Source of the DNA: Actinomycetota bacterium
Lineage (GTDB): Bacteria; Actinomycetota; Actinomycetes; S36-B12; UBA5976
Direction: 5' to 3'
Length of the DNA stretch: 64,000 bases
Assembly (NCBI GenBank): GCA_947452765.1
Contig: CANGDR010000002.1
Location: forward strand, 24,407 to 88,406
How positions within the stretch are numbered: position 1 is the first letter of the stretch; each line of letters starts with the position of its first letter. The notes beneath the pieces are model-generated. The model was not told the DNA's origin. It did not search any database and saw nothing but the letters and a program-made list of their open reading frames with translations. The position numbers and the translations under genes are program-made. Of the stretch, positions 5,173 through 27,331 are shown piece after piece.

Positions 5173-5313
5173 GACGCGGGCCTTTCTCGAAATTTCAAAA
5201 TGTGACTAACTCTAAACCTCAACAAGAGCGTTATAGTTATGTCAACCTAGGGCAAGTACAAGTTATTGCCAAAGCCTGCAATATCCCGTTAATTGGATTC
5301 GGTGTGTCGCAAC

Positions 5314-6000: not shown

Positions 6001-6004
6001 GGAA

Positions 6005-7402: not shown

Positions 7403-7404
7403 TG

Positions 7405-11217: not shown

Positions 11218-11223
11218 TCTCGC

Positions 11224-12291
11224 CTACTGGCGAACCCATTCCGCATAAAACATCGCCATACCTGCGCCGACACACAAACCTTGGATGATCCAGAAGCGAA
11301 CCACAATTTGAACTTCTGGCCAGCCTTTCATCTCAAAGTGATGGTGCAATGGAGCCATTCGGAGAACTCGTTTGCCAGTTAACTTATAAGATCCGACCTG
11401 TGCAATTACTGACAATGTAATAATTACAAACAGCCCACCAATCAAACCAAGTAAGAGTTCGGTACGAGTCATCAGTGCGAGGGCTGCTAAGGCACCGCCG
11501 AGCGCCAACGATCCGGTATCGCCCATAAAGATACGAGCCGGACTTGCATTCCACCAAAGAAATCCAAAACTTGCTCCGGCACATGCTGCCGCAAACACGG
11601 CAAGATCAAGTGGATCTCTAACCGTGTAACACCGCGCGAACTCACCCCAGAAGCAACTTTGTCCGTATTGCCAAATGCACATGATTGTGTAGGCCGTAAA
11701 TGAAACTAATGCTGCTCCCGTTGCTAAGCCATCTAGTCCATCAGTCAGATTTGTGCCATTAGTGATTCCAGTGATTAGAAACCAGATCCAAATTAGAATG
11801 ACAGCTCCTGGGAGCACCAATCGTGTATCACGGACCCAAGAAATCGCATTCGAGATTGGAAGCTTTCCACTTTCATCTGGGAACCTGGTGGCTAAATAAC
11901 CAAACGAAACTGCGGCTACTGCTTGTCCCAGCAATTTAGTCCTGGCTCTGATACCAGTACTGCGTTGCTTAAATATTTTTAAATAATCATCAGCTACGCC
12001 AACCAAACTAAGTGAAACCATTAAATAAATGGCAAGGTATCCCGACACAGTTGGTGGGCGCCAAACAATAAGGTGAGCTAAAAAGTAAGCCAAGATCACC
12101 GAGATAACTATTGCTACTCCACCCATGGATGGGGTGCCACGCTTGCTCCCATGTTCTGGATAAAGTACATCTTCAGTTGATTCCCGAATTGCCTGCGCAA
12201 TTCCCCGCTTATGGAGGAAATTAATTAAAAGCGGCGTGCCGATTAAAGTGAAGAGCGCGGCGAGTCCGCCTGCAAGCACAACTAACTTCAC
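11224..12291 (-). CDS. mraY: phospho-N-acetylmuramoyl-pentapeptide transferase
   Basis: ADDYLKI and NGTNLTDGLDGLA motifs. I prefer the GTG at 12291-12289, which forms a GTGA overlap with the murF stop, over the ORF-track ATG at 12315. Confidence 0.9.
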   Translation of the reverse strand: MKLVVLAGGLAALFTLIGTPLLINFLHKRGIAQAIRESTEDVLYPEHGSKRGTPSMGGVAIVISVILAYFLAHLIVWRPPTVSGYLAIYLMVSLSLVGVADDYLKIFKQRSTGIRARTKLLGQAVAAVSFGYLATRFPDESGKLPISNAISWVRDTRLVLPGAVILIWIWFLITGITNGTNLTDGLDGLATGAALVSFTAYTIMCIWQYGQSCFWGEFARCYTVRDPLDLAVFAAACAGASFGFLWWNASPARIFMGDTGSLALGGALAALALMTRTELLLGLIGGLFVIITLSVIAQVGSYKLTGKRVLRMAPLHHHFEMKGWPEVQIVVRFWIIQGLCVGAGMAMFYAEWVRQ

Positions 12292-13715
12292 TTTGAGCTC
12301 CCCTTCGATGTCCACTTAGCGACTAATCGTGACTCGATGTCCTCGGCTAGTACTTCAAACTTTTCAGCTCGGGAAGCCTTAAAGATAATGACATCGCCAG
12401 GTTGTATCTCATTGACAATGTAGTCGGATGCCTGCGCAAAGTCGGGATACCACACCGATTCGCCATCCCCATTCAACACTTGAGTTGCACCCAAATAGAT
12501 AGGCCGTGCTTGATTCCCAATTGAAACGATGTGTGAAACGTTAAGGTCAACTGCTAAGCGACCAATTCGATCGTGTTCGGAAACTTCTACATCGCCCAGT
12601 TCGTGCATTGCTCCGAGAACTGCCCAAGTTCGGCCCAGGCGTGGAATGCTCACCAAAGTTTTTAACGCAGCAGCCATCGATTCTGGATTAGCGTTATAAG
12701 AATCATTAATTAGCAAAACGTCGTGGGGCAAGTCATGAACTTCCATCCGCCATTTGCTTACTTGCTTTGTTTGCTCAAGTGCACTGACGATCTCCTGTAG
12801 TGACATCCCAGAGATTAGTCCAACGGCAGTTGCTGCTAGCGCATTAGAAACATTGTGTTCACCCAGCATTGGAAGTGTTGCAGGAACACGTTTTCCCTCA
12901 AACACCAAGTCAAATGTATAAGTTCCATTCTGAGTGATTGCTAAATTTTCTCCCCGGACGTCAGCGAAATCCGAAAACCCAAAGGTGACTGATCTTGCTG
13001 AAGTAAGCTCCTGCATATTTCGCACGAGCGGGTCATCCGCATTGAGTACGGCAAAACCAGTTTCTGGCAGAGACTCAATCAACTCACCCTTAGCTTGGGC
13101 TATCCCATGCATCGAACCAACTTCGCCTATATGTGCTTGTCCGACATTTGTTACGACCCCAATATTTGGTTTTGCGATATTGCACAAATATTTAATGTGT
13201 CCAAGGCCACGCATACCCATTTCTAAAACTAAATACTCAGTATCAGTTGGTGCACTAAGTATCGTTAGTGGCATTCCTAATTCATTATTAGGTGAACCTA
13301 CCGGCGCTTGGGTGACTCCATGGGTGTTCAAAACTTGACCAATCAAATCTTTAGTCGAAGTTTTTCCTGAAGATCCCGTTATCCCAATCACGGAAACATC
13401 TGCCATTTTGGCCCGTTGCGCCTTAGCAATTAATCCGACAGCAACTATTACCGAATCCAAAGGGTCGGAGTTGGTCGGAATCAAAATATAGTTACCTGAG
13501 ACAGGTTTTGTTGCCAAGGTTGCAAGGGCACCTGATGCAAGTGCTTGCTCGACACAATTATGGCCATCAGTACGTTCACCGACTATCGCGCAGAATAGGT
13601 CCCCTGACTTAATCGATCGAGAGTCAGTTGAAATCCCCGTCACAACAAAAGTGCTGTCCCCGAAGACTTCACCGCCAACAATTTCAGCCAACTCAGCTAA
13701 CGAGAAGTTATACAT
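12288..13715 (-). CDS. murF: UDP-N-acetylmuramoyl-tripeptide--D-alanyl-D-alanine ligase
   Basis: GITGSSGKTSTKD P-loop. Likely start is MYNFSLAELAEIVGG at 13715, an 8-nt overlap with the murE stop. Confidence 0.92.
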   Translation of the reverse strand: MYNFSLAELAEIVGGEVFGDSTFVVTGISTDSRSIKSGDLFCAIVGERTDGHNCVEQALASGALATLATKPVSGNYILIPTNSDPLDSVIVAVGLIAKAQRAKMADVSVIGITGSSGKTSTKDLIGQVLNTHGVTQAPVGSPNNELGMPLTILSAPTDTEYLVLEMGMRGLGHIKYLCNIAKPNIGVVTNVGQAHIGEVGSMHGIAQAKGELIESLPETGFAVLNADDPLVRNMQELTSARSVTFGFSDFADVRGENLAITQNGTYTFDLVFEGKRVPATLPMLGEHNVSNALAATAVGLISGMSLQEIVSALEQTKQVSKWRMEVHDLPHDVLLINDSYNANPESMAAALKTLVSIPRLGRTWAVLGAMHELGDVEVSEHDRIGRLAVDLNVSHIVSIGNQARPIYLGATQVLNGDGESVWYPDFAQASDYIVNEIQPGDVIIFKASRAEKFEVLAEDIESRLVAKWTSKGSSK

Positions 13716-15201
13716 TGGCGGACTCCGCGACAATCACTTTACGATCGTCAAAGTCTGTGATGACACCATTTACTTCTTGGCCGGTCTCGTGTCCCTTTCC
13801 TAAAACTGCAACTACATCTCCAGCTTTTGCTTGAGCCAATGCATAACGAATGGCTTCACGCCGATTCCCAATTTCGATAAGTTGGGCATCACCTTGACGG
13901 GCGCCCGCTAATACTGCAGCGCGAATCTTTGCCGGATCTTCACTTCGTGGGTTGTCATCCGTGATCACCACCAAGTCTGATAATTCGGAGGCTGCCCTAC
14001 CCATCAACGGACGCTTTGCAGAATCTCTGTCGCCTCCGCAACCTAAGACCGCAATAATCCGAGTTGGATTTGAATCACGAATAACTTGCAAAACCGTAGT
14101 AACTGCATCAGGGGTGTGGGCGTAATCGACGACAGCCGTGCCGAGAGCCTGATGTGTAACAACTTCAAATCGTCCTGGAATTGGTCGGATATTGCGAAGG
14201 GAATTTAACGCGTCGACTTGATCTGTTCCTAGTAATTCCACAACAGCAAGTGCCATGGCAGCATTTGTGGCATTAAACGAGCCAAACATATTTATTTCGA
14301 GAGCAATTTTTGTGGTTGCCGTTGTTATCGTTACCGCCGTAACCCCAGGTTTTGCATATTTGGCTTTGCTGAGGCTCCAATCCCCGAAAGCCCCAACTGT
14401 GAGCCTTGGAATCTGGATCGCTGAAGCCAGCTTTTGACCCCAAGCTTCATCGACTCCAATAATCGCCCTCTTAGCGTGCTCCGAAGTAAATAGCGAAGCT
14501 TTAGCTTGGAAATATGAATCCATATCTCCGTGGAAGTCAAGATGGTCTTGTGTCAGGTTTGTAAAAACTGCCACGTCAAAGGACAATCCAGTGACTCGAT
14601 GCAAGACAAGTGCGTGGCTTGAGACTTCCATAAAAACTGTCTTGACTCCGCGATCGACCATAACTGCAAGTAGGGCGAATAGATCTGTGGATTCTGGTGT
14701 AGTTCGAACTCCAGGTATGGATTCCTCGTTTATGAATGTGCCAAGAGTTCCAATGACGCCGACACTTTTCTTTGCATCCAAGAAAATGGATCGCAACATG
14801 TGAGTCGTTGTAGTTTTACCGTTGGTCCCAGTCACTCCCACCAAAGAAAGTTTTTTCTGGGGGTTGCCATAAATATGCGCGGCGAGTAAGGCCATGTCGT
14901 GGCGGACATCAGACAAAAGTAAATTTGGAATTCCATTGCTGGTAGCTACTGCTACCCCATGCTCGTCACTTGCAATTGCAACTGCACCACGTGCTATTGC
15001 CTCCGCTATAAATTCAACTCCGTGGTGATTCTCTCCAGGTACCGCAACATATAAATCACCAGCTAGAACATCTTTGGAATTATGCGTGATGCCAGTAATT
15101 GATATTTCATTGCTTGTTGCTTCGGCTACAAGCCCTGGGCCCGTAACAAGTATTGCTAGCTCACGCAAAGAAGTAGCGCCAACAATTGGTCTAAGCGTCA
15201 T
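13708..15201 (-). CDS. murE: UDP-N-acetylmuramoyl-L-alanyl-D-glutamate--2,6-diaminopimelate ligase
   Basis: GVTGTNGKTTTT P-loop and DDNPRSEDP motif. Likely start is the ATG at 15201, preceded by GAGG. Confidence 0.92.
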   Translation of the reverse strand: MTLRPIVGATSLRELAILVTGPGLVAEATSNEISITGITHNSKDVLAGDLYVAVPGENHHGVEFIAEAIARGAVAIASDEHGVAVATSNGIPNLLLSDVRHDMALLAAHIYGNPQKKLSLVGVTGTNGKTTTTHMLRSIFLDAKKSVGVIGTLGTFINEESIPGVRTTPESTDLFALLAVMVDRGVKTVFMEVSSHALVLHRVTGLSFDVAVFTNLTQDHLDFHGDMDSYFQAKASLFTSEHAKRAIIGVDEAWGQKLASAIQIPRLTVGAFGDWSLSKAKYAKPGVTAVTITTATTKIALEINMFGSFNATNAAMALAVVELLGTDQVDALNSLRNIRPIPGRFEVVTHQALGTAVVDYAHTPDAVTTVLQVIRDSNPTRIIAVLGCGGDRDSAKRPLMGRAASELSDLVVITDDNPRSEDPAKIRAAVLAGARQGDAQLIEIGNRREAIRYALAQAKAGDVVAVLGKGHETGQEVNGVITDFDDRKVIVAESANV

Positions 15202-15211
15202 CGGGACCTCG

Positions 15212-17023
15212 TCACCAGCCAACAGGAATCTTTGGTGGCCTGGTTTTTGTTGGTGGAATCTTTTGCTGAGCTAGCGCATAAGTCATAATCTTTTTAAAGA
15301 CTGGTCCGGCAACGGTGCTACCAAAGTGACCGTTAACTGGATTGTGAATCATGACAGCAATCACAAGTGATGGATTTTCGGCCGGCGCCATTCCAATGAA
15401 CGATGCGGTATATCCGCTATATCCGCGGGTAGCAGCATCATATTTATTTGCAGTACCGGTCTTGCCAGCTATTCGATAACCAGCAATCTGGGCATCAGGT
15501 GCCGTGCCGTCTGCCGACACTACACTTTCCAACATTTCACGAACAGTCTTGGCGGTAGCTGCACTGACCACTTTAACTCCGGGTACAGGTGAGTTCGGCT
15601 CGAATTTCCCGTCGTTACCTACATAGCCTGCTATCAATCGAGGCTTCATCCGAACTCCGTCATTTGCAATAGTTGCGAAAACGGAGGCCGCCTGAATCGC
15701 GTTCACGGATAGGCCCTGACCAAATGCGAGAGTTGGGAATGTTGTGCCAGACCAATCCTTAAGTGCAGGAAGTAAACCGGCACTTTCACCTGGAAAATTC
15801 ATTCCAGTAAAGTCTCCAATTCCAAACTTCTTCAAGTAGCCATAAAATTTCTTTTCACCAATAGCTTCAGCGGCCAAGATTGATCCCATATTGCTGGACT
15901 TAGCAAGAACACCGTTGAGAGTTAAGTGCAGAACCCCGTGCTTATCGTGATCGTGAAATGTGGTGCCTGCTCTCGGTAAGCCTGCCGGGATTGTGAACTT
16001 TGACATCGGGGTGAAGGCACCCTCCTCGATAACTGCTGCCATCGTCATAACCTTGCTTGTGGATCCAGGTTCGAATACGTCAGTTACTGCTGGGTTGCGT
16101 TTAGTTTGATCGCTTGTAGCAAAAGGGTCATTGGGATCAAATGTTGGATATGTAGCGAGTGCGATTATGTCGCCAGTTCTCGGATCCATAACGACAACGT
16201 CGCCACCTTTTGCACCAGACTTAGTAACTTCATCAGCGAGTGCTCGTTCTGCCATAGCCTGGACATCGCGATCGATGGTTAGTCTCGTGGAAATTCCGTT
16301 GGTTGGGTCAATGCTCTGACGTTCGCTGGTAGGAATTTCCCGACCATGTACGCGCTCGACCGTTAAAGTGCCGTCCGTGCCAGATAGTTGTTTGTCTAGG
16401 CCGTATTCGAGACCACCTAGTCCGTGACCTTCGGCGCCTACGTACCCAACTACGTTTGCCGCTAGTGCGCCGTTTGGATAGGAGCGCTTCGTTGTTGGTT
16501 CGCTGAAAATTCCTGGAATTCCAAGTGCAGCAATTGCCTTCCACGCATCAGGAGTGATTTGCTTTGCCACATAGTTGAACCGTTTGTCACCTGTAATTAG
16601 TTCAGTGACTTTTTTGACCGGAAGCCCGAGTAGCGGCGCAAGAACAGTGGCAGTTCCTGCTGGATCTTTAATCAAAGTTTGATCAACTGTTACATTGCGC
16701 GCCATAATCGTCGTTGCAATTGCTACCCCATTTGCATCTGTAATGGTTCCACGTAGTGCTGGTAGCACCAAAGTTTGCAATCTTGAGTTCTGGGCAGCCG
16801 CAGCGAGAGCTGGACCTTGGACGATTTGCAGATCTATTAACCGCGTAAAGAACAAAGACAAAACCATCAAAAAAACGACCGTCGTAAATCTAATCCGCTT
16901 ATGTGGACTTTGCAGATTCAACATAATCGGACCGGTAGGAACGGGAGCCGTTCCGCGCATTTGTAGCAGCCGAGGTTTTTGGTCTGGTTGCTGCGAAGGG
17001 CGAATTGGACTTTGGGTACTCAT
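15212..17023 (-). CDS. ftsI: class B penicillin-binding protein (division transpeptidase FtsI)
   Basis: N-terminal TM. SxxK (GSTSKVMT), SxN (KSSNMG) and KTG (GKTGTA) boxes. dcw position. Confidence 0.93.
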   Translation of the reverse strand: MSTQSPIRPSQQPDQKPRLLQMRGTAPVPTGPIMLNLQSPHKRIRFTTVVFLMVLSLFFTRLIDLQIVQGPALAAAAQNSRLQTLVLPALRGTITDANGVAIATTIMARNVTVDQTLIKDPAGTATVLAPLLGLPVKKVTELITGDKRFNYVAKQITPDAWKAIAALGIPGIFSEPTTKRSYPNGALAANVVGYVGAEGHGLGGLEYGLDKQLSGTDGTLTVERVHGREIPTSERQSIDPTNGISTRLTIDRDVQAMAERALADEVTKSGAKGGDVVVMDPRTGDIIALATYPTFDPNDPFATSDQTKRNPAVTDVFEPGSTSKVMTMAAVIEEGAFTPMSKFTIPAGLPRAGTTFHDHDKHGVLHLTLNGVLAKSSNMGSILAAEAIGEKKFYGYLKKFGIGDFTGMNFPGESAGLLPALKDWSGTTFPTLAFGQGLSVNAIQAASVFATIANDGVRMKPRLIAGYVGNDGKFEPNSPVPGVKVVSAATAKTVREMLESVVSADGTAPDAQIAGYRIAGKTGTANKYDAATRGYSGYTASFIGMAPAENPSLVIAVMIHNPVNGHFGSTVAGPVFKKIMTYALAQQKIPPTKTRPPKIPVGW

Positions 17024-17481
17024 TACTTAGCACCCGCCACTGCTCGCACAGGCTTTCCCAAAATTGTCTGATCTGACAGCCGCAAAAAAACTGGTGATTG
17101 AGCTGGAACCATACCCATAGATTGCGCAGATGTAATCAAAGCTTCTGGTGACTCACCAGCGACCACTAAGTTTGAAATAGATTGCTCGTCTGCAGTCATT
17201 TGAGCCAACTGCATTTGTAATGAATGCTTCTGAAATGAAGATTGGGCTGCCAATGTGTTTACAAAAAGCAGCAGCATCATTCCCGAAATAATGATTCCCA
17301 AAATTACAAACAGGAATGTCCGATTACTCGCCCGACCTTGAGGTACTGAAATCGGGATTGCTTGCGCGATTGGCGAAACAATTGGCTTAACCATCGGCTT
17401 AACTAAGGCGAGCCTTCGCATCGCCTTAGACTTTCGAGGGATTGGTGCTAATGCGGGGGTGCGAGCTGGCATGGCACTCAT
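17023..17481 (-). CDS. ftsL: FtsL-like single-pass division protein
   Basis: 152 aa with one TM ([19 protein letters not shown]) followed by a short heptad-like stretch. Occupies the ftsL slot. ATGA overlap with rsmH and TAATG overlap with ftsI. Confidence 0.7.
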
Positions 17482-18431
17482 GCGGCGACTCCAATCCGCT
17501 GAGCGGCCCGAAGCCGGACCGAAGTTGCGCGAGAATTCTCAGCAATCTCTTTCTCACTTGCCGGTTCGGATCCGCGAGTTAAAAGTTGTAGCCAAGGCTT
17601 ATCGGTATCTGGGACAAAAGGCATATCAACGGGAGTGGTGCTTTCAGTTCCTACCCGGAGTGCATTTTTAGCTATGCGGTCTTCCAGGGAGTGGTACGAA
17701 AGGATGACGATTCGACCATTCATTGCCAAGACATCTAGTGCCGCTGGAATAGCGCGCTCTAGGACAACTAGCTCTTCATTGACTTCTATTCGAAGCGCTT
17801 GGAATGTTCGCTTTGCTGGATTTCCGCCAGTGCGACGGGTTGCGGCTGGAATTGCATCCCGTACGACTGCAACCAATTGGTCGCTGTTTGTGAATGGTCG
17901 AAGTTCCCGTTCCTTGATGATGGCATTTGCTACTCGACCAGCAAAACGCTCTTCGCCATAGACCTTAAGGATGCGTGCCAAGTTTGCAAAGTCATATGTA
18001 TTGACAACGTCGGCTGCAGTTTGCCCCACAGTTCCGTTCATTCGCATATCTAGTGGTGAATTACGGGAATACGCAAAGCCGCGATCGTCTTTATCTAACT
18101 GCATTGACGAGACACCTAAGTCAAACAGAATTCCTTGTACCGATTCGATTCCCAATTTGGAAAGCTCATCAGCAATTTCGTCATAAACTGCATGCACAAA
18201 ATCGACGCGAGGTGCAAAGCGCGCTAAGCGAGTCCTAGATATGTCAAGAGCTTCTGGGTCGCGATCGAAACCAACAACTCTAAGGTTTGGAAATTCCTCC
18301 AGCGCGGACTCAGTGTGGCCACCTAAACCAAGTGTGGCGTCTACCAAAATTGCTCCATCAGCACTAATGGCTGGCGCTAAAAGGTCCAGGCAGCGTTGCC
18401 GCAAAACTGGAACGTGCGCGAATGTAGACAT
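17478..18431 (-). CDS. rsmH: 16S rRNA (cytosine1402-N4)-methyltransferase
   Basis: [10 protein letters not shown] and [10 protein letters not shown] motifs, position after mraZ. Confidence 0.95.
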
Positions 18432-18465
18432 TACAAAACTACAAACTCAGATGCAGCCTCAAGTC

Positions 18466-18524
18466 CCTGGTCGTTGGAGAGCCTGGCACCGGGGAAGGTG
18501 CGCCAGGATCGCGCCAACGACCAG
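18466..18524 (-). ncRNA. long stem-loop in the mraZ-rsmH spacer; candidate mraW RNA motif
   Basis: cctggtcgttgg (18466-18477) pairs with ccaacgaccag (18514-18524). An inner helix cctggc/gccagg adds to it. It lies in the 5' region of rsmH (mraW), where a structured actinobacterial motif of that name has been described. Confidence 0.45.
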
Positions 18525-18579
18525 AGGCCAAAGGCAACATCAATCGTGATGTTTTGGTTTTTGCAATTAGGTTTTAATT

Positions 18580-19005
18580 TCATGGCAGAACCACGTCTTC
18601 ATCGAGCGTCGCAAAGCCTGGTTCTTGGACTGCCAGGTACTGGTTCCAGGCAACGATGTCCCAGATTTCAATTCGGGTATCAGCACCTACTACAACAAGT
18701 TCACGATCTAGCCCTGCCCATTCGCGAAGTGGCGCTGGAATGGTTACTCGGCCTTGCTTGTCGGCTGAATCATCAAAGGCAGATGAGAAAAAAACTCGAG
18801 TGAATGCCCGAACTTTTTCGTTGTTCTGGGACCGTTCGCGCAGGCTCTCGGCATAATCCTGGAATCGCTCATTCGGCCAAATAACTACACAACGCTCTTG
18901 GCCCTTGGTCATGACGATGCCATCGCCTAGCGGTTCACGGAATTTAGCCGGCAGAATCAACCGGCCTTTGTCGTCAAGCTTTGGGGTGTGAGTGCCTAGA
19001 AACAC
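18580..19005 (-). CDS. mraZ: transcriptional regulator MraZ
   Basis: Two MraZ/AbrB-type repeats (LDDKGRLILPAKFRE and ADKQGRVTIPAPLRE). I prefer the GTG at 19005 (VFLGTHTPKLD, typical MraZ N-terminus) with GAGG 8 nt upstream over the ORF-track start at 19014. Confidence 0.93.
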   Translation of the reverse strand: MFLGTHTPKLDDKGRLILPAKFREPLGDGIVMTKGQERCVVIWPNERFQDYAESLRERSQNNEKVRAFTRVFFSSAFDDSADKQGRVTIPAPLREWAGLDRELVVVGADTRIEIWDIVAWNQYLAVQEPGFATLDEDVVLP

Positions 19006-19060
19006 TTGCAACACCTCACAAAACCAAGGGCGATTCTTCCCCGAACCACCTAGTTGTCCC

Positions 19061-19088
19061 AGATTACTCCATTTTGCTCCACTGTCAA
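19061..19088 (-). promoter_or_regulatory. candidate mraZ/dcw promoter with an MraZ-type repeat pair filling the spacer
   Basis: Minus strand reads TTGACA (19088-19083), then GTGGAGCAAAATGGAG (16 nt, 19082-19067), then TAATCT (19066-19061). GTGGAG-N5-TGGAG resembles the GTGGG-type direct repeats bound by MraZ. Confidence 0.4.
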
Positions 19089-19152
19089 CCTTATTTAGGT
19101 ATCAATTACCTCGCATGTTACATAATGTGCAATAAAAGCCTTTAAAACATGG

Positions 19153-19168
19153 GTGGAGTAAAATGGGG
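19153..19168 (+). promoter_or_regulatory. second MraZ-box-like pair, inverted relative to the first
   Basis: GTGGAGTAAAATGGGG on the plus strand. It matches the reverse complement of 19067-19082 at 14 of 16 positions. Confidence 0.3.
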
Positions 19169-19233
19169 GAAATTCTAAATTTTTAGCCAAATTTTTTATG
19201 CAAGCGAATTTTCTAATTGGCCCTGGCCAGAAA

Positions 19234-20049
19234 CTAAGGGTGAACCGGAGCCACTAATCCGGTTGGAGCTAGGCACATGTAGTTTCGATCCAAAGTTACG
19301 CGACCGACAGTTGCCACAAATTGCACGATAGCAGGCTCTCTAAGTCCAAATGAACTAGTCGTACAAGCTGCCTTTGCAGCAGCGACGCCACTTGCGACAT
19401 CGGGATACTTACCTAATGCCAACCAAGTTGGAACACCCAGATTTGCATCTCCAGTTATTTCAAACCAGTGTGCTGGTGGACCATAAATACCCACGGGATA
19501 CCCAGCTGCGGAAAGCTGAGCCATAGTTTCACTTATAACTTGAGCAGCTCGATCGGTAGTTGACCAAGTGTTGTGGGTTTCAACATCAAGCCAAACTGGG
19601 GTTCCGACTGGAACTTTAAATTTCTTGAGTCGTTTTATTGTGTCGCTAGCAATGCTTTTCCCATACCGGGTTGCCGAACCGTCATTTGGATCAGCCGTAT
19701 TTATGTATACCGCTACCCCATCGTGGGTTTTTGCCCAATTCCACTGAGTTTCAAAACATGGGTTTGATGTAAAAGGCTTACCTTTATTTAAACCAACAAT
19801 TACGAATCCGACGGGGCTACTTGGCAGCTTTGATTTACATTGTGGGTGTGACACGTCGTAACCACTGTTGTCGAGTGGTGCGGTCCAGGAAATTTGGGCA
19901 GGTTGCTGAACACTAATAAAGGTCCGGCCATCGACAGTTCCAATACTTAATGGCTCAGGATTTAGCCAAGAAGAAATAAGAGTGAACCCGATAAAACCAG
20001 CTAGCACCAATGTTCCAGCCGTAACGAGAAAGCCCAGTAATCTACGCAA
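19234..20049 (-). CDS. membrane-anchored glycoside-hydrolase-like protein (GH25 / DUF1906-like)
   Basis: TTG start, N-terminal TM (LLGFLVTAGTLVLAGFIGFTLI), GYDVSHPQC motif reminiscent of GH25/Rv2525c-like domains. The family assignment is tentative. Confidence 0.45.
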   Translation of the reverse strand: MRRLLGFLVTAGTLVLAGFIGFTLISSWLNPEPLSIGTVDGRTFISVQQPAQISWTAPLDNSGYDVSHPQCKSKLPSSPVGFVIVGLNKGKPFTSNPCFETQWNWAKTHDGVAVYINTADPNDGSATRYGKSIASDTIKRLKKFKVPVGTPVWLDVETHNTWSTTDRAAQVISETMAQLSAAGYPVGIYGPPAHWFEITGDANLGVPTWLALGKYPDVASGVAAAKAACTTSSFGLREPAIVQFVATVGRVTLDRNYMCLAPTGLVAPVHP

Positions 20050-20054
20050 GGGCT

Positions 20055-20576
20055 TTACTTGATAGGACCTGTTACGGCCTCAGGGAAATAATTCTGTCCA
20101 ATTCCAGAAGAACGTTTTGGGATCATCACAGATCGCACCCAAGTCATTACTTCGATGCCATCCTGGTTTAAGCCACGAGTACGCATGGTTAGAACGCCGA
20201 AATCAGGGCGGGAACTTGATTCCCGAATTTCTAAAACCTTACTCTCTGCGTACAAAGTATCGCCTACATAAACCGGTGCAGTTAACTTAATTTCCGACCA
20301 ACCAAGATTTGCCACGGCGTGCTGGCTCATATCTAGCACCGACATGCCAAGTACAAGTGCAACCGTAAGTCCCGAATTCACGATTATTCGACCTTCAGCG
20401 ATTGGGTTCATTTTTGCGTAATGCTCATTGAAATGATTCTGATTTGTATTAACAGTCAACAGCGTGAACCAAGTTGAATCTGCTTCGGTAATTGTGCGAC
20501 CTAATGGGTGTTGGTAAACATCTCCAGCAACAAAGTCTTCGACAAAATTTCCAATTTCCGCTTTATGTAAAGTCAT
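20055..20576 (-). CDS. MaoC-family (hotdog fold) dehydratase
   Basis: 173 aa. The ..VYQHPLGRTITEADSTWFTLLTVNTNQNHFN.. pattern is typical of MaoC-like dehydratases. Confidence 0.7.
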   Translation of the reverse strand: MTLHKAEIGNFVEDFVAGDVYQHPLGRTITEADSTWFTLLTVNTNQNHFNEHYAKMNPIAEGRIIVNSGLTVALVLGMSVLDMSQHAVANLGWSEIKLTAPVYVGDTLYAESKVLEIRESSSRPDFGVLTMRTRGLNQDGIEVMTWVRSVMIPKRSSGIGQNYFPEAVTGPIK

Positions 20577-20609
20577 ATGTAAATCATGCCTTACGAATAA
20601 CAGTGGTGC

Positions 20610-20981
20610 TTACTTATCCGTATCTTGGCGGCGGTCCCAGCGGTCTTCTAGGCCCTGCATAAAATTCGTTGAAGGCTTTGGTTTCTTGGCATCCTGCCTG
20701 GCGGCCTGATCTGGCGCTGCCTTATTTCCTGAAACCGCAAAGGAAAGACCAATAACTATTGCAATAAAACCAGCAACTCCGATTAGTGGCATAGCCAGTG
20801 AAACCGCTGCAATCATGAAACCAATTCCAGTAACCACCGAGAGCACTGCAATTCCTACGCTCTTTGGCGTCGTGCGGCCGTTCATGGAACCACGAAGGGT
20901 CGAGGCAAATTTAGGGTCTTCGGTAGCTAGAGCACGCTCCATCTGTTGTAACAGTTTTTGCTCATGGTCTGACAGTGGCAT
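20610..20981 (-). CDS. DUF3040 family membrane protein
   Basis: MPLSDHEQKLLQQMERALATEDPKFASTLRG N-terminus followed by two TM segments. Confidence 0.8.
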   Translation of the reverse strand: MPLSDHEQKLLQQMERALATEDPKFASTLRGSMNGRTTPKSVGIAVLSVVTGIGFMIAAVSLAMPLIGVAGFIAIVIGLSFAVSGNKAAPDQAARQDAKKPKPSTNFMQGLEDRWDRRQDTDK

Positions 20982-21117
20982 TTTGCTCCCCTCGATCCCT
21001 AAATTTGATCTTTCAATCTATAACCACCTCAAGAATACGTCCGGAATCCGACATTGGAAACACGAACGGGTGTCTTTGGTATTCAGATCAGGTTATTTTG
21101 TCCATATTTAGGCTAAA

Positions 21118-22347
21118 TCAGTCAGGTTCGGGTCGAATCAATCTGGCAGGGCGCACCGCCGATCTCCCATATTTCTTAGAAACTCGATCTACTGCTTCTT
21201 CTGCTTCTCGCCAGCCTGAGTCCCGTTCTGAGAATTCCAGTTGGATGGACGATTGGCTGGCTGGAACCAACCCAGTTGCCCGAACTCCGACTAGGCGAAT
21301 GCGGGCGCGCTGTAAATGCATGGCTTCGAACAAGCTTTTAGCAGTGCCGTAGATCTCGGTACCAAGGTCAGTTGAAGCAGGTAAAGACTTGCTGCGAGTA
21401 ACTGATGTGAAGTCCGCGAATTTAATTTTGATGGTTATAGTTCGAGCAAAGAATTCTCCGGCTCGCAATCGCTGCCCAACTTTATTGCTTAAATCTAAGA
21501 TTTGTGCAAGCAATATTTCTGGATCGTCAATGTCTGTCTCGAAAGTTCGTTCGGCTCCAATGCTTTTTTCGGACACATTTGGTAGTACTGAGCGTGGATC
21601 TCGACCCCAAGACAATTCCGAAAGATGTTCAGCGGCTGCCTTGCCAACAACTCGAGCCAAAGTCGACACAGGAGTATTGGCTATATCTGCCACAGTCTTT
21701 AAACCGAGCCGAGCTAGCTGCTCGGCAGTTTTTTCGCCAACTCCCCAGAGCGCTCCAATTGGAAGTGGGTGCAAAAACTCGATTACTTTGTCGAAAGGCA
21801 CAACATGCAACCCATCAGGCTTGGCAAAGTTTGTTGCGAGTTTAGCCACAAACATAGTTGGAGCTACGCCAACTGAGCATGTTATGCCTTGCTCGTCACT
21901 TACCCGGGCTCGAATTGACTCGCCGATTTGTGACGGTGAGCCGATCAATTTTATTGCACCTGATACATCCAAGAATGCTTCATCTAACGAAAGTGGTTGG
22001 ACCAAGGGTGTGATTGACTCAAAAATAGTCATTACATTTTCAGATGCCTTGGCATATTTTTCGTGATCAGGCTCAACAACTACGGCAAGTGGTGCAAGAC
22101 GTAGTGCACGTGACATCGGCATCGCGGAATGTACGCCCAGTTTTCTAGCTTGATAGGTAGCAGATAAAACCACACCACGATTGCCACCGTGTCCAACTAT
22201 GACTTGTTTGCCTTTGAGTTCTGGGTTATCCCGAACTTCCACCGAAGCATAAAAAGCGTCCATATCTATGTGGAGAATATTGCAGTTGGTGTCGTCTCCG
22301 ATCGGATCGCGCGCAGCTCCCCCGCGATCAAGTTGTGAACGACTCAT
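21118..22347 (-). CDS. dinB: Y-family DNA polymerase IV (DinB type, catalytic residues intact)
   Basis: HIDMDAFYASVE and SLDEAFLDVSG catalytic motifs, GVGEKTAEQL helix-hairpin-helix, possible clamp motif QLEF near the C-terminus. Start ATG 22347-22345 overlaps the dnaE2 TGA 22346-22344 (ATGA). Confidence 0.88.
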   Translation of the reverse strand: MSRSQLDRGGAARDPIGDDTNCNILHIDMDAFYASVEVRDNPELKGKQVIVGHGGNRGVVLSATYQARKLGVHSAMPMSRALRLAPLAVVVEPDHEKYAKASENVMTIFESITPLVQPLSLDEAFLDVSGAIKLIGSPSQIGESIRARVSDEQGITCSVGVAPTMFVAKLATNFAKPDGLHVVPFDKVIEFLHPLPIGALWGVGEKTAEQLARLGLKTVADIANTPVSTLARVVGKAAAEHLSELSWGRDPRSVLPNVSEKSIGAERTFETDIDDPEILLAQILDLSNKVGQRLRAGEFFARTITIKIKFADFTSVTRSKSLPASTDLGTEIYGTAKSLFEAMHLQRARIRLVGVRATGLVPASQSSIQLEFSERDSGWREAEEAVDRVSKKYGRSAVRPARLIRPEPD

Positions 22348-25300
22348 GGTGCCATCTTTGCGGCTGATCGCATAGATCGCGCGATATCTGTGCCAGCGGG
22401 TCGCACGTCGGCAAATGGTGACAGTCGGAAACCACTTGCGTGCTCCCAAATCCGAGTGGGAACAACTGGATCTGCTTGGGTTATTGGTTCTTGGTGAATT
22501 AGATCTTGGACTGCACTAATTCCACCATCGCGCCAAACTCGATAAACCTCAGATAGTTCCCAGCAGCCATCAGCCAAAATGGAAACTCCACGGGGACCAG
22601 TTCTGCGGACAGTTCCACTAACTAGAAGTAGCCAGGAGTGAAATAGCACTGGGGCGTGCATGTCGAGTGCATTTTCAAAGAAAGTAGCATCAACCGTTCC
22701 AGTTGAATCATCCAAAGTAACGAATGCCACTCGCTTACCTGATCTAATTGGCGGAGTTTGCGTGGAGACTTTCACGCCTGCGACCAGCACTTTGGAACGC
22801 GAGCGTACTTCAAGTAAGTGCTTTGCCGGAACTGCATTTAATTCGCGCAACATTTCTTGATAGAAACTCACTACGTGTGCACTTACATCTAGCCCAAGAA
22901 TCTCGATTTCATATTTAACGCGGTCTGCAAGCGAAAGTTTGGGTAAGCCAGTTGGCTTGGGTTGCCAATCTATAAACTCCAATCCAAATGAGATCTGATC
23001 CACTCCAACTGGTCGATAAGAGCTCTTTAATTTGAATTCATTGGCCAGATCTGAAACATGAAGTAATAAATCGCGGCGCGAAACTAGCTGACCATGTAAT
23101 CCATCGAAGCCGCCAGCTAAAACAATCCGTTCAATGATCGGCCGTGATGCTCGGCTGCGTGCGACAAAATCAGCTAGTGATCGATAAGGCTGACTTTCCA
23201 TAATCGAATTAACTTCATGAGAGCTAATTCCTTTAACTTCCGAAAGCGGGATCCTTATCCCCAACTTGCCATCTTGGTTAGGTTCAACTGCATAAACGTC
23301 AGTTGAGGAGTTAACGTCTAAGCCATAAATGTCTACCCCAAAACTTCGGGCATCATCGACTATCAAGCGCTTTGGGTACATACCTGGGTCATGCGTTAAC
23401 ACCCCAGCCATGAATGCTGCGGGATGGTGTGCCTTAAACCAGGCGGACTGGTAAGTAGGCAGTGCAAAAGCTGCTGCGTGCGCTTTACAAAAACCAAATG
23501 ATGCAAAAGATCTCAGCACATCCCAAACTTCTTCTACTACCGTTAGGGCGTACTTTCGCTTTCGCAATGAAATGTAGAACCATTCCCGAATTTCATCAAG
23601 TTGGTTGACGTCACCCATTCGGCGACGGATCAAGTCGGCTTCTTCTAAGGAGCACCCAGTCATAGTCGAAACAATCCGCATAACTTGCTCATGGAAAACC
23701 ACAACACCTGAGGTCTCGGCCAATATCGGCTCTAAATCAGAATGCATAAAGTGGGTATCCCCCCAGCCTTGCCGAGCTCGCAAGAATGGTGTGATCATGT
23801 CGCTTTTAACTGGCCCGGGACGGAATAGCGAAATATCAGTAATTAAGTCTCCGAAAGTTTCTGGCGCAAATTTCCCAATAAGTTCGCGTTGGCCTGGCGA
23901 TTCAATCTGGAAGCAACCAAGAGTGTGGGTACTTTGAATTAACTCGAAAGTTTTCGGATCGTCTATCGGCACTGCCTCTAAATCGATTAAACCTTGCGAG
24001 TTAGCGCCATAAGCCTGTGGGCCTTCGACCCTTGCCACCTCTGAGATCGCATAAGCCAAGGCAGATTGCATCCGCACTCCAAGGACATCAAGCTTTAACA
24101 GTCCCATGTGCTCAACATCGTCTTTATCGAACTGGGACATTGGGTAGTCCTGGGCACTTTCTTGAACTGGAGTGCGCTTCAACAAAGTTAGGTCTGATAA
24201 AACCACACCACAGGGATGTAATGCCATATGTCTAGGTAAGCCATCAAGGCCTTCGACCAAATCTAAAAATTGATCCAGATCCCCGCGCTGTGCCAAAACT
24301 CCAAGACCACTGCGGCGAAGTTCTGGCAATTCAGCTAGAGCGCTTCGGACATACTTCGCACGAATATGTGGAAAGGATTTAGCAAACGTATTGATTTCAC
24401 CAGGTGGCATACCAAGGGCTGCGCCGACATCTCGAATTGCATGCCGAACTCGATATGTTTCTCGCATTGATACACAAGTAGTCCGCTCTTTCCCAAAGCG
24501 CTCAAAGATTGCATCGTAAATGTCTGTCCGACGGTCTGACTCAACGTCTATATCTATGTCAGGTAATCCAGGACGCAGTGTGGAAACAAACCGCTCCATA
24601 AGTAAGTTATGCGCGACTGGATCAACCCCAGAAATTCCCAATATGTGGTTTATGAAACTTCCGGCGCCAGAACCGCGCGCAGCAACTCTAATTCCCATAT
24701 TGCGAACCATCTGGACTACTTCGGCAACAGTTAAGACATAACCAGCAAAGCCCATTTTGGTTATCACTGAAAGTTCGTCGACTAGTCGGTCACTAACACT
24801 ATGCCGATCATCAGTGCGAGTCACGCTTTTATCGACAAAGTAATGCTGTAATCCGATCTCGCAGCGATCTCGCAGCACCATGTCCGCAGACCTGGTTTCA
24901 TCAGGTAGCAGCATAGAAAGTTCCGGGACATAAACGTCTTTCATACCCAAGTCGGCGGCTGGGTCAATTACACAGCTCTCGCCTAATGAAATGGTTTGCT
25001 GAATTAAGGATCGGCTGATGTTGCGTGGATCGCCAACCATTCCAGCAATACGTTGCGCAAGTATCATCATGTGTTCACTAGAAGCAAGAAAAGCTTGATT
25101 AGTTGTGGTCTGTCGATTTCGCACAGTTAACGCAATCTGGCGCCGTGACGAATCTAAAACATCGGCAATGCGCGAATCGTTGGAATCTCGGTATCGAACC
25201 GCGTTAGTTAAGACTGCAGGTGTGCGATGCACAATTGCCCACTGCAGCATGCGGGCTGCGAAAGTATCAGAGAGGTTAGGTCCCTCGGGCTTTTGGGCAT

Positions 25301-25844
25301 GCGTGACAATCTCAATCAAAGTCTTGACATCATGGTTGCGCCATTGCTCGAAAAAATCTAATGCGCGATCTGGGCGTCGATTCAAAATATTGTGACCAAC
25401 ATCAGAATGTGGACCGAGTAGAGCAACTACCCCATGCTCTCCAGCCAATGCCATAAGTTCGTTGCGTTCTATCTCGGGGTCATCGCGAGATCCTTGATGT
25501 GCACGAGAAATAATGGCGCACAAGCCAGCCCAACTTTGCTTGTCATGTGCCAATAGCGTTACGCGCGGACGTTCTGGTTTAACCCACTTGCCGCCATGTG
25601 CTGGGGTTGGTAAATATGGTTGCGGTGTTGCCAGTGCAATATCCGCACCCAAGATTGGTGAGATCCCAGCAGATGCGCACGCATGCAAAAAAGTAACTGC
25701 GCCAGATACTGTGTCGCGATCAGTTAGGGCAAGTGCAGGCTGCCCAAACTCGGCTGCGCGCGCGACTAAATCTTGGGGCGTTGTAGTTCCATAACGCATT
25801 GACAAGGCAGATGCGACATGAAGATGTATGAATGACTCACTCAT
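22344..25844 (-). CDS. dnaE2: error-prone DNA polymerase III alpha paralog DnaE2
   Basis: 1166 aa. N-terminal PHP domain (FIHLHVASALSMRYGTTTPQDL.. ALTDRDTVSGA), pol III alpha core, SOS box upstream, and a Y-family polymerase downstream. Confidence 0.85.
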   Translation of the reverse strand: MSESFIHLHVASALSMRYGTTTPQDLVARAAEFGQPALALTDRDTVSGAVTFLHACASAGISPILGADIALATPQPYLPTPAHGGKWVKPERPRVTLLAHDKQSWAGLCAIISRAHQGSRDDPEIERNELMALAGEHGVVALLGPHSDVGHNILNRRPDRALDFFEQWRNHDVKTLIEIVTHAQKPEGPNLSDTFAARMLQWAIVHRTPAVLTNAVRYRDSNDSRIADVLDSSRRQIALTVRNRQTTTNQAFLASSEHMMILAQRIAGMVGDPRNISRSLIQQTISLGESCVIDPAADLGMKDVYVPELSMLLPDETRSADMVLRDRCEIGLQHYFVDKSVTRTDDRHSVSDRLVDELSVITKMGFAGYVLTVAEVVQMVRNMGIRVAARGSGAGSFINHILGISGVDPVAHNLLMERFVSTLRPGLPDIDIDVESDRRTDIYDAIFERFGKERTTCVSMRETYRVRHAIRDVGAALGMPPGEINTFAKSFPHIRAKYVRSALAELPELRRSGLGVLAQRGDLDQFLDLVEGLDGLPRHMALHPCGVVLSDLTLLKRTPVQESAQDYPMSQFDKDDVEHMGLLKLDVLGVRMQSALAYAISEVARVEGPQAYGANSQGLIDLEAVPIDDPKTFELIQSTHTLGCFQIESPGQRELIGKFAPETFGDLITDISLFRPGPVKSDMITPFLRARQGWGDTHFMHSDLEPILAETSGVVVFHEQVMRIVSTMTGCSLEEADLIRRRMGDVNQLDEIREWFYISLRKRKYALTVVEEVWDVLRSFASFGFCKAHAAAFALPTYQSAWFKAHHPAAFMAGVLTHDPGMYPKRLIVDDARSFGVDIYGLDVNSSTDVYAVEPNQDGKLGIRIPLSEVKGISSHEVNSIMESQPYRSLADFVARSRASRPIIERIVLAGGFDGLHGQLVSRRDLLLHVSDLANEFKLKSSYRPVGVDQISFGLEFIDWQPKPTGLPKLSLADRVKYEIEILGLDVSAHVVSFYQEMLRELNAVPAKHLLEVRSRSKVLVAGVKVSTQTPPIRSGKRVAFVTLDDSTGTVDATFFENALDMHAPVLFHSWLLLVSGTVRRTGPRGVSILADGCWELSEVYRVWRDGGISAVQDLIHQEPITQADPVVPTRIWEHASGFRLSPFADVRPAGTDIARSMRSAAKMAP

Positions 25845-25850
25845 CGCGCG

Positions 25851-26132
25851 CTAATCCATCACTCGGCGAACAAACCAGCGGTCATCACTTGTTGATATGT
25901 CGTAGACGCCTAAACTTTCCGATCGGTCAGCAGCAGCTTCAACTCGCCACACTCGCCAGTCCCGTGAGTCAGTTGAATTGCGGCGCCACCAAGCGGAGGA
26001 TTCCATCCAAGTAAGTAATACAGCCACAACTACATAGCGCCGGCCGCGCCAGCCAAACTGGGTTGGAAAACCACGGTCGTCAACGCGCACTCGAACCAGA
26101 GATCTGGGGGTTGTGCCGTAGTTGCGGGACAT
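25851..26132 (-). CDS. uncharacterised Trp/Arg-rich 93-aa protein, first gene of the dnaE2 operon (possibly the DUF6504 family, from memory)
   Basis: MSRNYGTTPRSLVRVRVDDRGFPTQFGWRGRRYVVV..WWRR..DWRVWRVEAA..VYDI..DDRWFVRRVMD. Its stop is 6 nt before the dnaE2 ATG. I moved the start to ATG 26132 because the longer ORF would run through the SOS box. Confidence 0.6.
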   Translation of the reverse strand: MSRNYGTTPRSLVRVRVDDRGFPTQFGWRGRRYVVVAVLLTWMESSAWWRRNSTDSRDWRVWRVEAAADRSESLGVYDISTSDDRWFVRRVMD

Positions 26133-26142
26133 TACTAGCCTT

Positions 26143-26158
26143 TCGAACATATGTTCGA
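26143..26158. promoter_or_regulatory. LexA (SOS) box, actinobacterial type
   Basis: TCGAAC-ATAT-GTTCGA is a perfect match to the TCGAAC-N4-GTTCGA palindrome. It sits 11-26 nt upstream of the ATG at 26132. Confidence 0.8.
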
Positions 26159-26230
26159 ATAGCATACGACTAGCGACCGACGGGTTTCCAATCTTTAGGA
26201 AAATCCGGATAAATCAAGGGTTAGCCCAGA

Positions 26231-27331
26231 TTAAAGTCCGTGGATTCCTGCGGACTTAGTAATGAGTTTGGCTTGCACCTCAGTCAAAGCCTGCTCTGGC
26301 AGGCGCTCGCGGTCCGCGCCATACGGGTCGTCAATGTTGGTTTTAACGCCAGACATGGACTCTAAAACTGCCAAGCCACAGTACGGAACGTAAGTCGGTG
26401 AATAGCCACCTTCATGCGTCATCATTACTTTGCCGTCACAAACTTCATCGGCCACAGTAAGCAGCATTTCAGTTAGCTGTCGGTAGCCAGATGCCGTAAG
26501 CAACATTCGGCCAAGCGGATCAAAAGCGCTTGCATCAAAACCCGATGGCACCACAATCACATCGGGATTAAACCTACGAATAGCCGGCACGACAACTTTG
26601 CTAAATGCTTCAACGTAAGCGCCATTACCTGAGCCAGCTGGCAACGGAATGTTTATCACGGAACCGCTCGCTGACTGATCACCAGCGTCATCAACTAAAC
26701 CGCTATTAATCGGATACAAGTTGTCTTGGTGAATCGAAATACATAAGACGTTTGGATCCGAATAGTAAATCTCTTGAGTGCCATTGCCATGATGTACATC
26801 CCAGTCAACAACAGCTACCCGCTTGACTCCCATAGTTGCTCGAACATTTTCAATCGCAATAGCGGCATTTGCAAAGATGCAAAATCCCATACCGTTCGAC
26901 GGTCGAGCATGATGACCCGGTGGTCGCACTAATGCATATGCATTGTTAACTGTGCCACCTACTACTGCACGCAAAGCTTGAATCGCGCCACCAGCCGCAA
27001 GAGCTGCAATATCGTAACCACCATAACCAAATGGTGATTCGCCATCTCCAGCATCACCACCCTTTGGATTTAGGCTCTCAGCTTTGATTCGAGCTATATG
27101 TTCTGCACTGTGAATACGAAGAATGTCTTCTTCCGTTGCAGCTACCGCAGGGATCCGAACAAGGTCTTTGGCAAGTCCAGAAACTTCTACCAAGGAAGCA
27201 AACCGAACTTTAGTTTCGGCACTTTCAAAGTGTTGATACGGCTGCACGGTTGTACTTGGAAATACGTGCCCAGCAAATGTTCCAGTGTCGTGCCAGCCGT
27301 AAAGCTCTTCCCATACATAACCAGTTGTCAT
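26231..27331 (-). CDS. histone-deacetylase-family amidohydrolase (acetylpolyamine/acetoin-utilisation type)
   Basis: VVDWDVHHGNGTQ, PPGHHA and HEGGYS motifs. Likely start is MTTGYVWEELYGWHDTG at 27331. Confidence 0.85.
   Translation of the reverse strand: MTTGYVWEELYGWHDTGTFAGHVFPSTTVQPYQHFESAETKVRFASLVEVSGLAKDLVRIPAVAATEEDILRIHSAEHIARIKAESLNPKGGDAGDGESPFGYGGYDIAALAAGGAIQALRAVVGGTVNNAYALVRPPGHHARPSNGMGFCIFANAAIAIENVRATMGVKRVAVVDWDVHHGNGTQEIYYSDPNVLCISIHQDNLYPINSGLVDDAGDQSASGSVINIPLPAGSGNGAYVEAFSKVVVPAIRRFNPDVIVVPSGFDASAFDPLGRMLLTASGYRQLTEMLLTVADEVCDGKVMMTHEGGYSPTYVPYCGLAVLESMSGVKTNIDDPYGADRERLPEQALTEVQAKLITKSAGIHGL

Follow-up and report, generated by a model that had tools for sequence, protein, structure and literature searches.

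DnaE2-based mutasomes are drivers of mutagenesis after DNA damage and, among mycobacteria, of drug resistance. We describe here an operon that encodes a small protein, a DnaE2-type polymerase and a Y-family polymerase (PolY). It lies in a 64,000-nucleotide stretch of DNA from an actinobacterial assembly (GCA_947452765.1, contig CANGDR010000002.1, positions 24,407 to 88,406), which we call the window and to which coordinates refer. In our view it is probably an SOS-regulated imuB-C-like/dnaE2/polY operon with a B-group DnaE2, belonging to the predicted DnaE2B-PolY-ImuBC-RecA class of multisubunit translesion polymerases.

Several related arrangements have been described. Tsai et al. (2012, PMC3273824) reported ATGA-fused dnaE2 and dinB2 genes in Streptomyces and Kytococcus, with SOS induction in Streptomyces by reverse-transcription PCR. 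The first description of ImuB-C, a copy of the ImuB C-terminal domain that stands by itself, came from Aravind et al. (2013, PMC3765255), who found solo ImuB-C genes adjoining DnaE2 and DinB, and a 2019 follow-up (PMC6511836) listed ImuA-less variants with a PolY, active or inactive, and with standalone ImuB-C and/or DnaE2. The DnaE2B-PolY-ImuBC-RecA type, predicted in Actinobacteria only and represented by Tessaracoccus lapidicaptus, was added in Nucleic Acids Research in 2026 (PMC12926913). The split-ImuB mutasome was catalogued computationally in this literature between 2012 and 2026, and our locus adds a further example to it rather than a new architecture.

An initial annotation of the window had suggested that the operon is a variant mutasome, in which either a Pol IV takes the place of ImuB or two translesion polymerases are made stoichiometrically. 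The layout is indeed non-canonical, and an active-looking Pol IV-type protein replaces the dead polymerase domain of ImuB, but the architecture had already been described in 2012, 2013 and 2026 (PMC3273824, PMC3765255 and PMC12926913), and the Pol IV does not simply substitute for the ImuB scaffold. ImuB instead appears to be present in split form, i.e., as a free ImuB-C gene plus a PolY with clamp-binding and RecA-N-terminus-like (RecA-NT) motifs, because the small protein belongs to the Pfam family DUF6504 and the PolY tail carries the RecA-NT motif. What the 2019 and 2026 surveys concluded is not altered by this locus, which contributes a compact and seemingly complete case from a freshwater lineage that is abundant and has a streamlined genome.

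Operon layout compared with described systems

The palindrome and the three open reading frames (ORFs) of 93, 1166 and 409 codons follow one another in that order on the minus strand, from 26158 to 21118:

26161..26191, minus strand: possible promoter, TTGGAA and TATGCT with a 19-nucleotide spacer, read by eye; it stops 2 nucleotides before the SOS box
26143-26158, no strand assigned: LexA (SOS/Cheo-type) box TCGAACATATGTTCGA, a perfect 16-nucleotide palindrome with the core GAAC-N4-GTTC
25851..26132, minus strand: small gene, imuB-C-like, 93 residues, assigned from its DUF6504 match
22344..25844, minus strand: dnaE2, B group, 1166 residues, assigned from domain scans and motif coordinates
22344..22347, minus strand: ATGA stop/start overlap of dnaE2 and polY, read in the sequence
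21118..22347, minus strand: polY (Pol IV/DinB-type, PolY-core), 409 residues, assigned from domains, motifs and hidden Markov model (HMM) scores
21232..21243, minus strand: QLEF, a beta-clamp-binding-type motif directly after the little-finger domain
21136..21216, minus strand: RecA-NT motif GWREAEEAVDRVSKKYGRSAVRPARLI, residues 378-404 of PolY, assigned from conservation and a profile match

Much of the initial annotation reads the same way: the ATGA overlap at 22347-22344, the single SOS box ahead of the small gene, dnaE2 and the Pol IV-type gene, the two catalytic motifs of the 409-residue Y-family polymerase, and QLEF near its C-terminus all stand. The small gene is separated from dnaE2 by 6 nucleotides, and dnaE2 overlaps polY by 4, so translation of the genes is probably coupled.

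The locus is real and intact and comes from an uncultured freshwater actinobacterium, since the same DnaE protein occurs on at least 10 public contigs, from at least four different samples and including the metagenome-assembled genome (MAG) GCA_947450265.1, and the sequencing runs that hold the locus are DNA metagenomes from lakes and fresh water. Among GTDB species, its nearest relative is a MAG of 'Candidatus Nanopelagicales', whose DnaE is 77% identical.

The T. lapidicaptus DnaE2B-PolY-ImuBC-RecA system has the same three operon components: a B-group DnaE2 (39% identity over the N-terminal 400 residues), an intact PolY with the same clamp and RecA-NT tail (48% identity), and a standalone DUF6504 protein. 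The window differs in its host, a low-GC (~48%) freshwater Nanopelagicales-like MAG, and in its 4-nucleotide dnaE2/polY overlap; the role of RecA is a prediction in both systems.

The ImuA'-ImuB-DnaE2 mutasome of mycobacteria also has a damage-inducible (here predicted), proofreading-deficient second Pol III alpha, and both systems encode a clamp motif, a RecA-NT motif and an ImuB-C barrel. However, the Y-family module of the window is catalytically intact, its ImuB-C is a separate polypeptide, its DnaE2 belongs to group B rather than A, and no ImuA' was found in the 64-kb window. The genes also form one three-gene operon, whereas mycobacteria have split imuA'-imuB and dnaE2 loci.

The dnaE2-dinB2 pair of Streptomyces resembles the window in gene order, ATGA overlap, upstream Gram-positive SOS box, B-group DnaE2 and RecA-NT-like tail. 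Its DinB2 has lost the catalytic motifs, whereas the PolY of the window looks active, and the two Streptomyces chromosomal loci that we examined have no upstream DUF6504, whereas the window has ImuB-C. With intact motifs and a DUF6504 gene, the window falls outside the Streptomyces-type DnaE2B-iPolY-RecA class, which has an inactivated PolY and no ImuB-C.

Two other systems share fewer parts. The Geobacter lexA-imuB-C-polY operon (PMC6511836) likewise places a standalone ImuB-C and an active PolY-core under SOS control, but it has no DnaE2. Pol V likewise has a Y-family catalytic subunit, a RecA-NT-type motif that holds one RecA, and a small beta-rich accessory subunit; however, the accessory subunits are unrelated (UmuD' is SH3-like, and ImuB-C has no fold match in the PDB), and Pol V lacks a C-family polymerase partner.

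GAAC-N4-GTTC is the core of the Gram-positive/actinobacterial LexA box. The operon's copy (26145-26156) lies in the promoter region, and the whole box ends 10 nucleotides 5' of the likely small-gene ATG at 26132; LexA is predicted to bind at 26143-26158. There are three copies of the core in the window against ~1.0 expected, a number which 9 of 100 shuffles reach, so the excess is not significant and the other two copies are probably due to chance; both are intragenic (35661-35672 and 48196-48207, in a LamB/YcsF-family gene and an M23 peptidase gene). The TTGGAA/TATGCT pair is a possible promoter at best: a sigma-70 consensus scan of 20400-26500 returned no sigma-70-like site. A terminator scan returned nothing usable.

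The encoded proteins

The 1166-residue polymerase is, by its sequence, a DnaE2 of the B group and not a DnaE1 or DnaE2A. Pfam and NCBIfam place PHP, Pol III alpha core, finger, HhH and OB domains on it; it lacks the tau-binding C-terminal domain and keeps the catalytic PDIDID motif. Its PHP region reads HLHVAS..SMRYG..LTDRD. Metal ligands of Mycobacterium tuberculosis DnaE1 lie in ..LDG.. and ..TDH.., where the window protein has ..SMRYG.. and ..TDRD.., and by this comparison at least two of the PHP ligands appear to be replaced. Such replacement is typical of DnaE2 (PMC12926913). Over the N-terminal 420 residues, the protein is 38-41% identical (209-249 bits) to the three DnaE2B sequences printed in the same paper and 29% identical (117 bits) to an imuB-linked DnaE2A, for which we used the DnaE2 encoded behind a genuine imuB on a Streptomyces plasmid.

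Could the assignments be wrong, i.e., could this protein be a DnaE1, or the 409-residue protein a cryptic ImuB? We regard this as very improbable. It is true that the NCBIfam DnaE1 score slightly exceeds the error-prone DnaE2 score (658.9 versus 617 bits) and that some of the relatives go by the name 'DNA polymerase III subunit alpha' at NCBI. However, both scores are far under their cut-offs (1002 and 939 bits, respectively), an SOS box precedes the operon, the PHP positions differ from the M. tuberculosis DnaE1 ligands, and related complete genomes carry a separate DnaE1. We rejected the DnaE1 assignment on the cut-offs and the DnaE2B identity. A cryptic ImuB was rejected because the 409-residue protein keeps its catalytic residues, scores 809 bits with the PolY HMM versus 90 bits with the ImuB HMM, and does not group with ImuB in a tree.

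As a separate observation, the DnaE2 tail after the OB fold (residues 1133-1151, 22392-22448) has the sequence WEHASGFRxSPFADVRPAG, which is near-invariant in 14 DnaE2B proteins at 57-79% identity and could be an interaction motif.

The 409-residue protein has IMS, IMS_HHH and IMS_C domains and passes the cut-off of the NCBIfam Pol IV subfamily PRK03858 (395 versus 367 bits), and its nearest solved structure is a Pol IV (PDB 7yll, 2e-78). Its first catalytic motif, HIDMDAFYASVE, spans residues 26-37 and its second, SLDEAFLDVSG, residues 120-130; within them, the catalytic DMD (residues 28-30) and SLDE (residues 120-123) align with active PolYs and are missing in scDinB2. The catalytic carboxylates are therefore intact as read from the alignment, and the protein is predicted to be active. 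Identity to other Y-family proteins is 48% for the PolY-core of the published T. lapidicaptus system, 39% for a msDinB3-like enzyme of M. abscessus, 33% for the inactive Streptomyces DinB2 and 25-27%, over partial alignments, for ImuB proteins. A quick neighbour-joining tree (no bootstrap) places PolY with the DnaE2B-linked PolYs, including the published representative, and far from ImuB.

At its N-terminus, PolY has an extension of ~22 residues before the catalytic core (MSRSQLDR...DDTNCN, residues 1-23, 22279-22347), which is also found in Nanopelagicales relatives, one of them without the gene overlap, and not in the T. lapidicaptus PolY. An upstream TTG start at 22449 was considered and set aside in favour of the ATG, as the MSRSQ... 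N-terminus is conserved in relatives.

QLEF (residues 369-372) aligns with QLxL/QLxF in all DnaE2-linked PolYs that we collected. Its position probably corresponds to that of QLVLGL in Escherichia coli Pol IV. PolY continues for ~37 residues past this motif, and it is here that the claim that the protein lacks an ImuB-type C-terminal extension needs qualifying: there is no ImuB-C domain or fused C-terminal barrel on the 409-residue protein, but 27 residues of the tail are RecA-NT-like. These residues (378-404) are kept in every DnaE2-linked PolY collected, and the tail profile resembles the N-terminal helix-strand of RecA. With hhalign, the tail profile scored 23.9 (P=5.5e-6) against a RecA N-terminal profile, compared with 5.8 for the reversed control and at most 14.3 in 100 column shuffles; the tail also has a sub-threshold DUF4113 match (E=0.17). 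The RecA-NT motif mediates ImuB-ImuA' binding, and the same mode has been proposed for UmuC-RecA (PMC12926913, PMC6511836).

The 93-residue protein matches Pfam PF20114 (DUF6504) with E=3.6e-12. A mechanical ORF of 104 codons starts at 26165, 5' of the palindrome, and would therefore contain the SOS box. The ATG at 26132, which gives 93 residues, has GAAAGG in front of it, and gene callers use this same start on public contigs. W28, R29 and R31 (in WRGRR) and the C-terminal W86 are invariant, and the protein has the hallmarks of the ImuB-C superfamily, i.e., a small beta-rich domain with a C-terminal Trp and two basic residues. Its AlphaFold2 model is all-beta with seven strands (mean predicted local distance difference test score, pLDDT, 82). 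Foldseek with this model found no fold match in the PDB (best E=0.12, template-modelling score <0.45), nor did a profile of the small protein match any PDB sequence, which agrees with the published view that the ImuB-C fold is new.

DUF6504 is, by sequence, the family that the literature calls standalone ImuB-C, because the two proteins that PMC12926913 prints as ImuB-C in its supplement, T. lapidicaptus VEP41449 and QBR94233 (112 residues), match the same Pfam family (E=1e-13 and 1e-16). Whether DUF6504 is homologous to the C-terminus of full-length ImuB is a separate question. The published link (PMC3765255) comes from HMM and PSI-BLAST searches with E-values of 1e-3 to 1e-5, and we accept the homology on that evidence rather than on our own comparisons. 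The DUF6504 HMM, run on true ImuBs, placed 9 of 10 best domain hits at the extreme C-terminus (residues 430-501, the last ~70 residues), with 5-10.6 bits against a maximum of 1.8 for the reversed control, and the AlphaFold2 models of the 93-residue protein and the ImuB C-terminal domain share a strand order, including a loop of 12-13 residues. The best 150 of the 857 hits in a profile search with the small protein were all standalone (78-181 residues), so this search could not show fusions to ImuB.

The initial annotation also stated that no ImuB or ImuA' partner is visible. This is right for the full-length proteins: six-frame HMM and phmmer scans of the 64-kb window returned no full-length ImuB, no RecA, no second Y-family gene and no second DnaE gene, and phmmer with a putative ImuA' query had no match in the window. 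(The query was an unannotated 187-residue protein 5' of imuB on a Streptomyces plasmid, an assignment of our own.) The small protein, however, is DUF6504, i.e., the ImuB-C part of ImuB. For related genomes, the supplement of PMC12926913 gives DnaE1=1, DnaE2A=0, DnaE2B=1 and Y-family=1 in Ca. Planktophila and Ca. Nanopelagicus, whose closed genomes carry the same operon type as the window. With one Y-family polymerase per genome, there can be no ImuB in those closed genomes, and the operon PolY must be that polymerase. It appears, then, that in the streamlined relatives of the window lineage the operon PolY is the only Y-family polymerase.

Conservation, proposed mechanism and alternatives

To collect related loci, we searched a single genome of each GTDB species, using an alignment of DnaE2 as query. 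This gave 80 loci from Nanopelagicales, Micrococcales, Propionibacteriales, Geodermatophilales, Streptomyces and others, which were annotated with HMMs for DnaE2, PolY, DUF6504 and HEPN_SAV_6107. Gene architectures were counted in the 59 loci with enough flanking sequence:

DUF6504-HEPN-DnaE2-PolY: 31/59 loci
DUF6504-DnaE2-PolY (the window type): 13/59 loci, mostly Ca. Planktophila and other Nanopelagicaceae, with the ATGA overlap usual
DUF6504-HEPN-DnaE2: 8/59 loci
DnaE2-PolY: 4/59 loci, two of them Streptomyces with a dead PolY
HEPN-DnaE2-PolY: 3/59 loci

PolY thus follows DnaE2 in 51 of the 59 loci, and DUF6504 precedes it in 52. In 72 of 79 loci, a perfect GAAC-N4-GTTC occurs no more than 300 nucleotides 5' of the first gene (with only 83 copies across the 947 kb examined), and an overlapping start codon at the dnaE2/polY junction is possible in 23 of 80. 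As the arrangement recurs in dozens of species, it is not a product of chance: adjacency, SOS box and PolY tail are conserved features, and the overlap and accessory genes are variable. The gene identities, motifs, synteny and conserved LexA box are established.

These counts bear on whether the neighbourhood is incidental, with polY being the resident housekeeping dinB of a polY/DUF3040/dcw block upstream of which an imuB-C-dnaE2 cassette was inserted. DUF3040 and mraZ do follow PolY in the window and in relatives, and 8 of the 59 loci have DUF6504-HEPN-DnaE2 without an adjacent PolY. However, the pair is together in the other 51 loci, across several actinobacterial orders and often with overlapping codons, and the DnaE2B-adjacent PolYs form one group in the neighbour-joining tree. 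We consider an incidental neighbourhood improbable.

For the preferred reading, a split-ImuB mutasome, we propose the following mechanism. LexA would occupy the palindrome behind a weak promoter until damage leads to RecA activation and LexA self-cleavage, whereupon the three genes would be induced and transcribed together, with the 6-nucleotide gap and 4-nucleotide overlap favouring coupled translation. PolY would be catalytically competent and would also carry two adaptor elements of the dead mycobacterial ImuB (the QLEF clamp motif and the RecA-NT helix-strand), and the free ImuB-C beta-barrel would supply the third. Published AlphaFold models have the ImuB-C element contacting the PHP domain of DnaE2 (PMC12926913), and it is from such models in the literature that we take the assembly step. 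RecA probably acts in place of ImuA', as has been inferred in print. The parts would then form a complex holding the proofreading-deficient DnaE2 on the clamp where a 3' end has stalled.

Several points weigh against this reading. The DnaE2B-PolY-ImuBC-RecA complex is known from AlphaFold models (PMC12926913), no experiment being known for any system of this type, and deletion of dnaE2 in Streptomyces gave no phenotype in ultraviolet resistance or mutagenesis (PMC3273824). All of recA, lexA and dnaE1 lie outside the 64-kb window. We found no RNA run holding the locus sequence, the matching runs being lake and freshwater DNA metagenomes. The link from DUF6504 to ImuB is also affected: a DUF6504 profile built from 159 sequences, compared with 106 ImuB C-termini in hhalign, aligned in the expected register but not significantly (P=0.094), and a true ImuB (508 residues, from a Streptomyces plasmid) has no Pfam DUF6504 match at E<=1. 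Lastly, the 4-bp overlap is not universal, many relatives having 7-120 bp, or else a methyltransferase gene, between the two genes, and one relative with 70% DnaE2 identity has lost the DUF6504 gene and keeps the SOS box, DnaE2 and PolY, so ImuB-C seems dispensable at least there.

It can therefore be asked whether the genes are co-regulated without their products forming a complex, i.e., whether the operon supplies two independent translesion polymerases and a small damage-binding protein, each polymerase acting alone on the beta clamp. The suggestion in the initial annotation that two translesion polymerases are merely produced stoichiometrically falls under this alternative. PolY resembles a full Pol IV that needs no partner. 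By the counts of PMC12926913, there is one Y-family polymerase in each complete Nanopelagicales genome, so PolY must also cover ordinary Pol IV duties. The overlap and accessory genes vary among relatives, and Aravind et al. (PMC3765255) proposed ImuB-C as a damage-sensing DNA-binding domain, not a scaffold. Against these points, the RecA-NT tail and the adjacency to DnaE2 are conserved over several actinobacterial orders, the associations of DnaE2 follow its phylogeny, and the authors of the AlphaFold tetramer model for this type of system judged it good (PMC12926913). We therefore hold co-regulation without a complex to be unlikely, though it is the alternative we take most seriously.

The small, low-GC, three-gene version in the window is probably easy to clone, making it usable for reconstitution. 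Such work could test DnaE2 for assembly with an active PolY, free ImuB-C and RecA.

Accessory genes and neighbourhood

The most frequent architecture includes a gene that the window does not have. HEPN_SAV_6107 (PF18726; 130-180 residues) lies between DUF6504 and dnaE2 in 42 of the 59 species-level loci, with Pfam E-values of 1e-23 to 1e-38 in Intrasporangium, Geodermatophilus and Nanopelagicales (e.g., L013:4487-4981, L015:4430-4888, L016:617-1156, and L019, with ~700 bp between DUF6504 and dnaE2). The closest relatives of the window (77-79% DnaE2 identity) have it. In the window, by contrast, the DUF6504-dnaE2 gap is only 25845-25850, and the HMM scan of the window returned no HEPN_SAV_6107 gene.

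Of the elements of these loci, this gene alone was not found in the literature that we searched: PMC12926913 and its supplements nowhere mention 'HEPN', and none of the papers searched links HEPN with DnaE2. A survey of HEPN domains lists HEPN_SAV_6107 as lacking the catalytic motif and does not give its genomic context. One might speculate that HEPN_SAV_6107 is a real regulatory or structural subunit, that the window lineage is a natural minimal version of the system, and that its sole Y-family polymerase serves as both Pol IV and mutasome scaffold; we offer this tentatively and would sooner bet against it than for it. If true, the freshwater clade would show which accessory subunits are expendable for the DnaE2B-PolY core.

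Other genes occupy the junctions in some relatives. In the 70% relative (L010/L011/L012, 5830-6000), the SOS box/promoter region is followed by a leader ORF of ~24 codons with an ATGA overlap with the dnaE2 start. A gene for a class-I methyltransferase (~270 residues, dependent on S-adenosylmethionine) lies between dnaE2 and polY in the four loci scanned for it, which are of the Intrasporangium, Humibacillus and Dermatophilaceae type (L038:8880-9713, L045:9099-9911, L051:8940-9755 and L066:4813-5670). About 14 more loci, including Nocardioidaceae and Kineococcus, have a dnaE2-polY gap of the same size (~18 loci in total).

DUF6504 is also plasmid-borne, in Deinococcus and Arthrobacter. On the Deinococcus sp. 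KNUC1210 plasmid NZ_CP092196.1 (L004), an S24 peptidase, a Y-family polymerase, DUF6504, one further gene and dnaE follow each other, with an SRAP peptidase gene nearby. On the Arthrobacter conjugative plasmid pYA7-1a (L018), DUF6504 is 6 nucleotides 5' of a DnaE2B-like dnaE, and an SRAP gene is adjacent.

Immediately downstream of polY in the window (3940-20981) comes a DUF3040/SCO2097-family gene (20610-20981), followed by a gene for a MaoC-like hydratase and by the dcw cluster of division and cell-wall genes, which runs from mraZ (18580-19014) through rsmH (17478-18431) and a penicillin-binding protein gene (15212-17023) on to ftsZ (3940-5172). The polY-DUF3040-(...)-mraZ block is conserved in relatives (L010 and L013).

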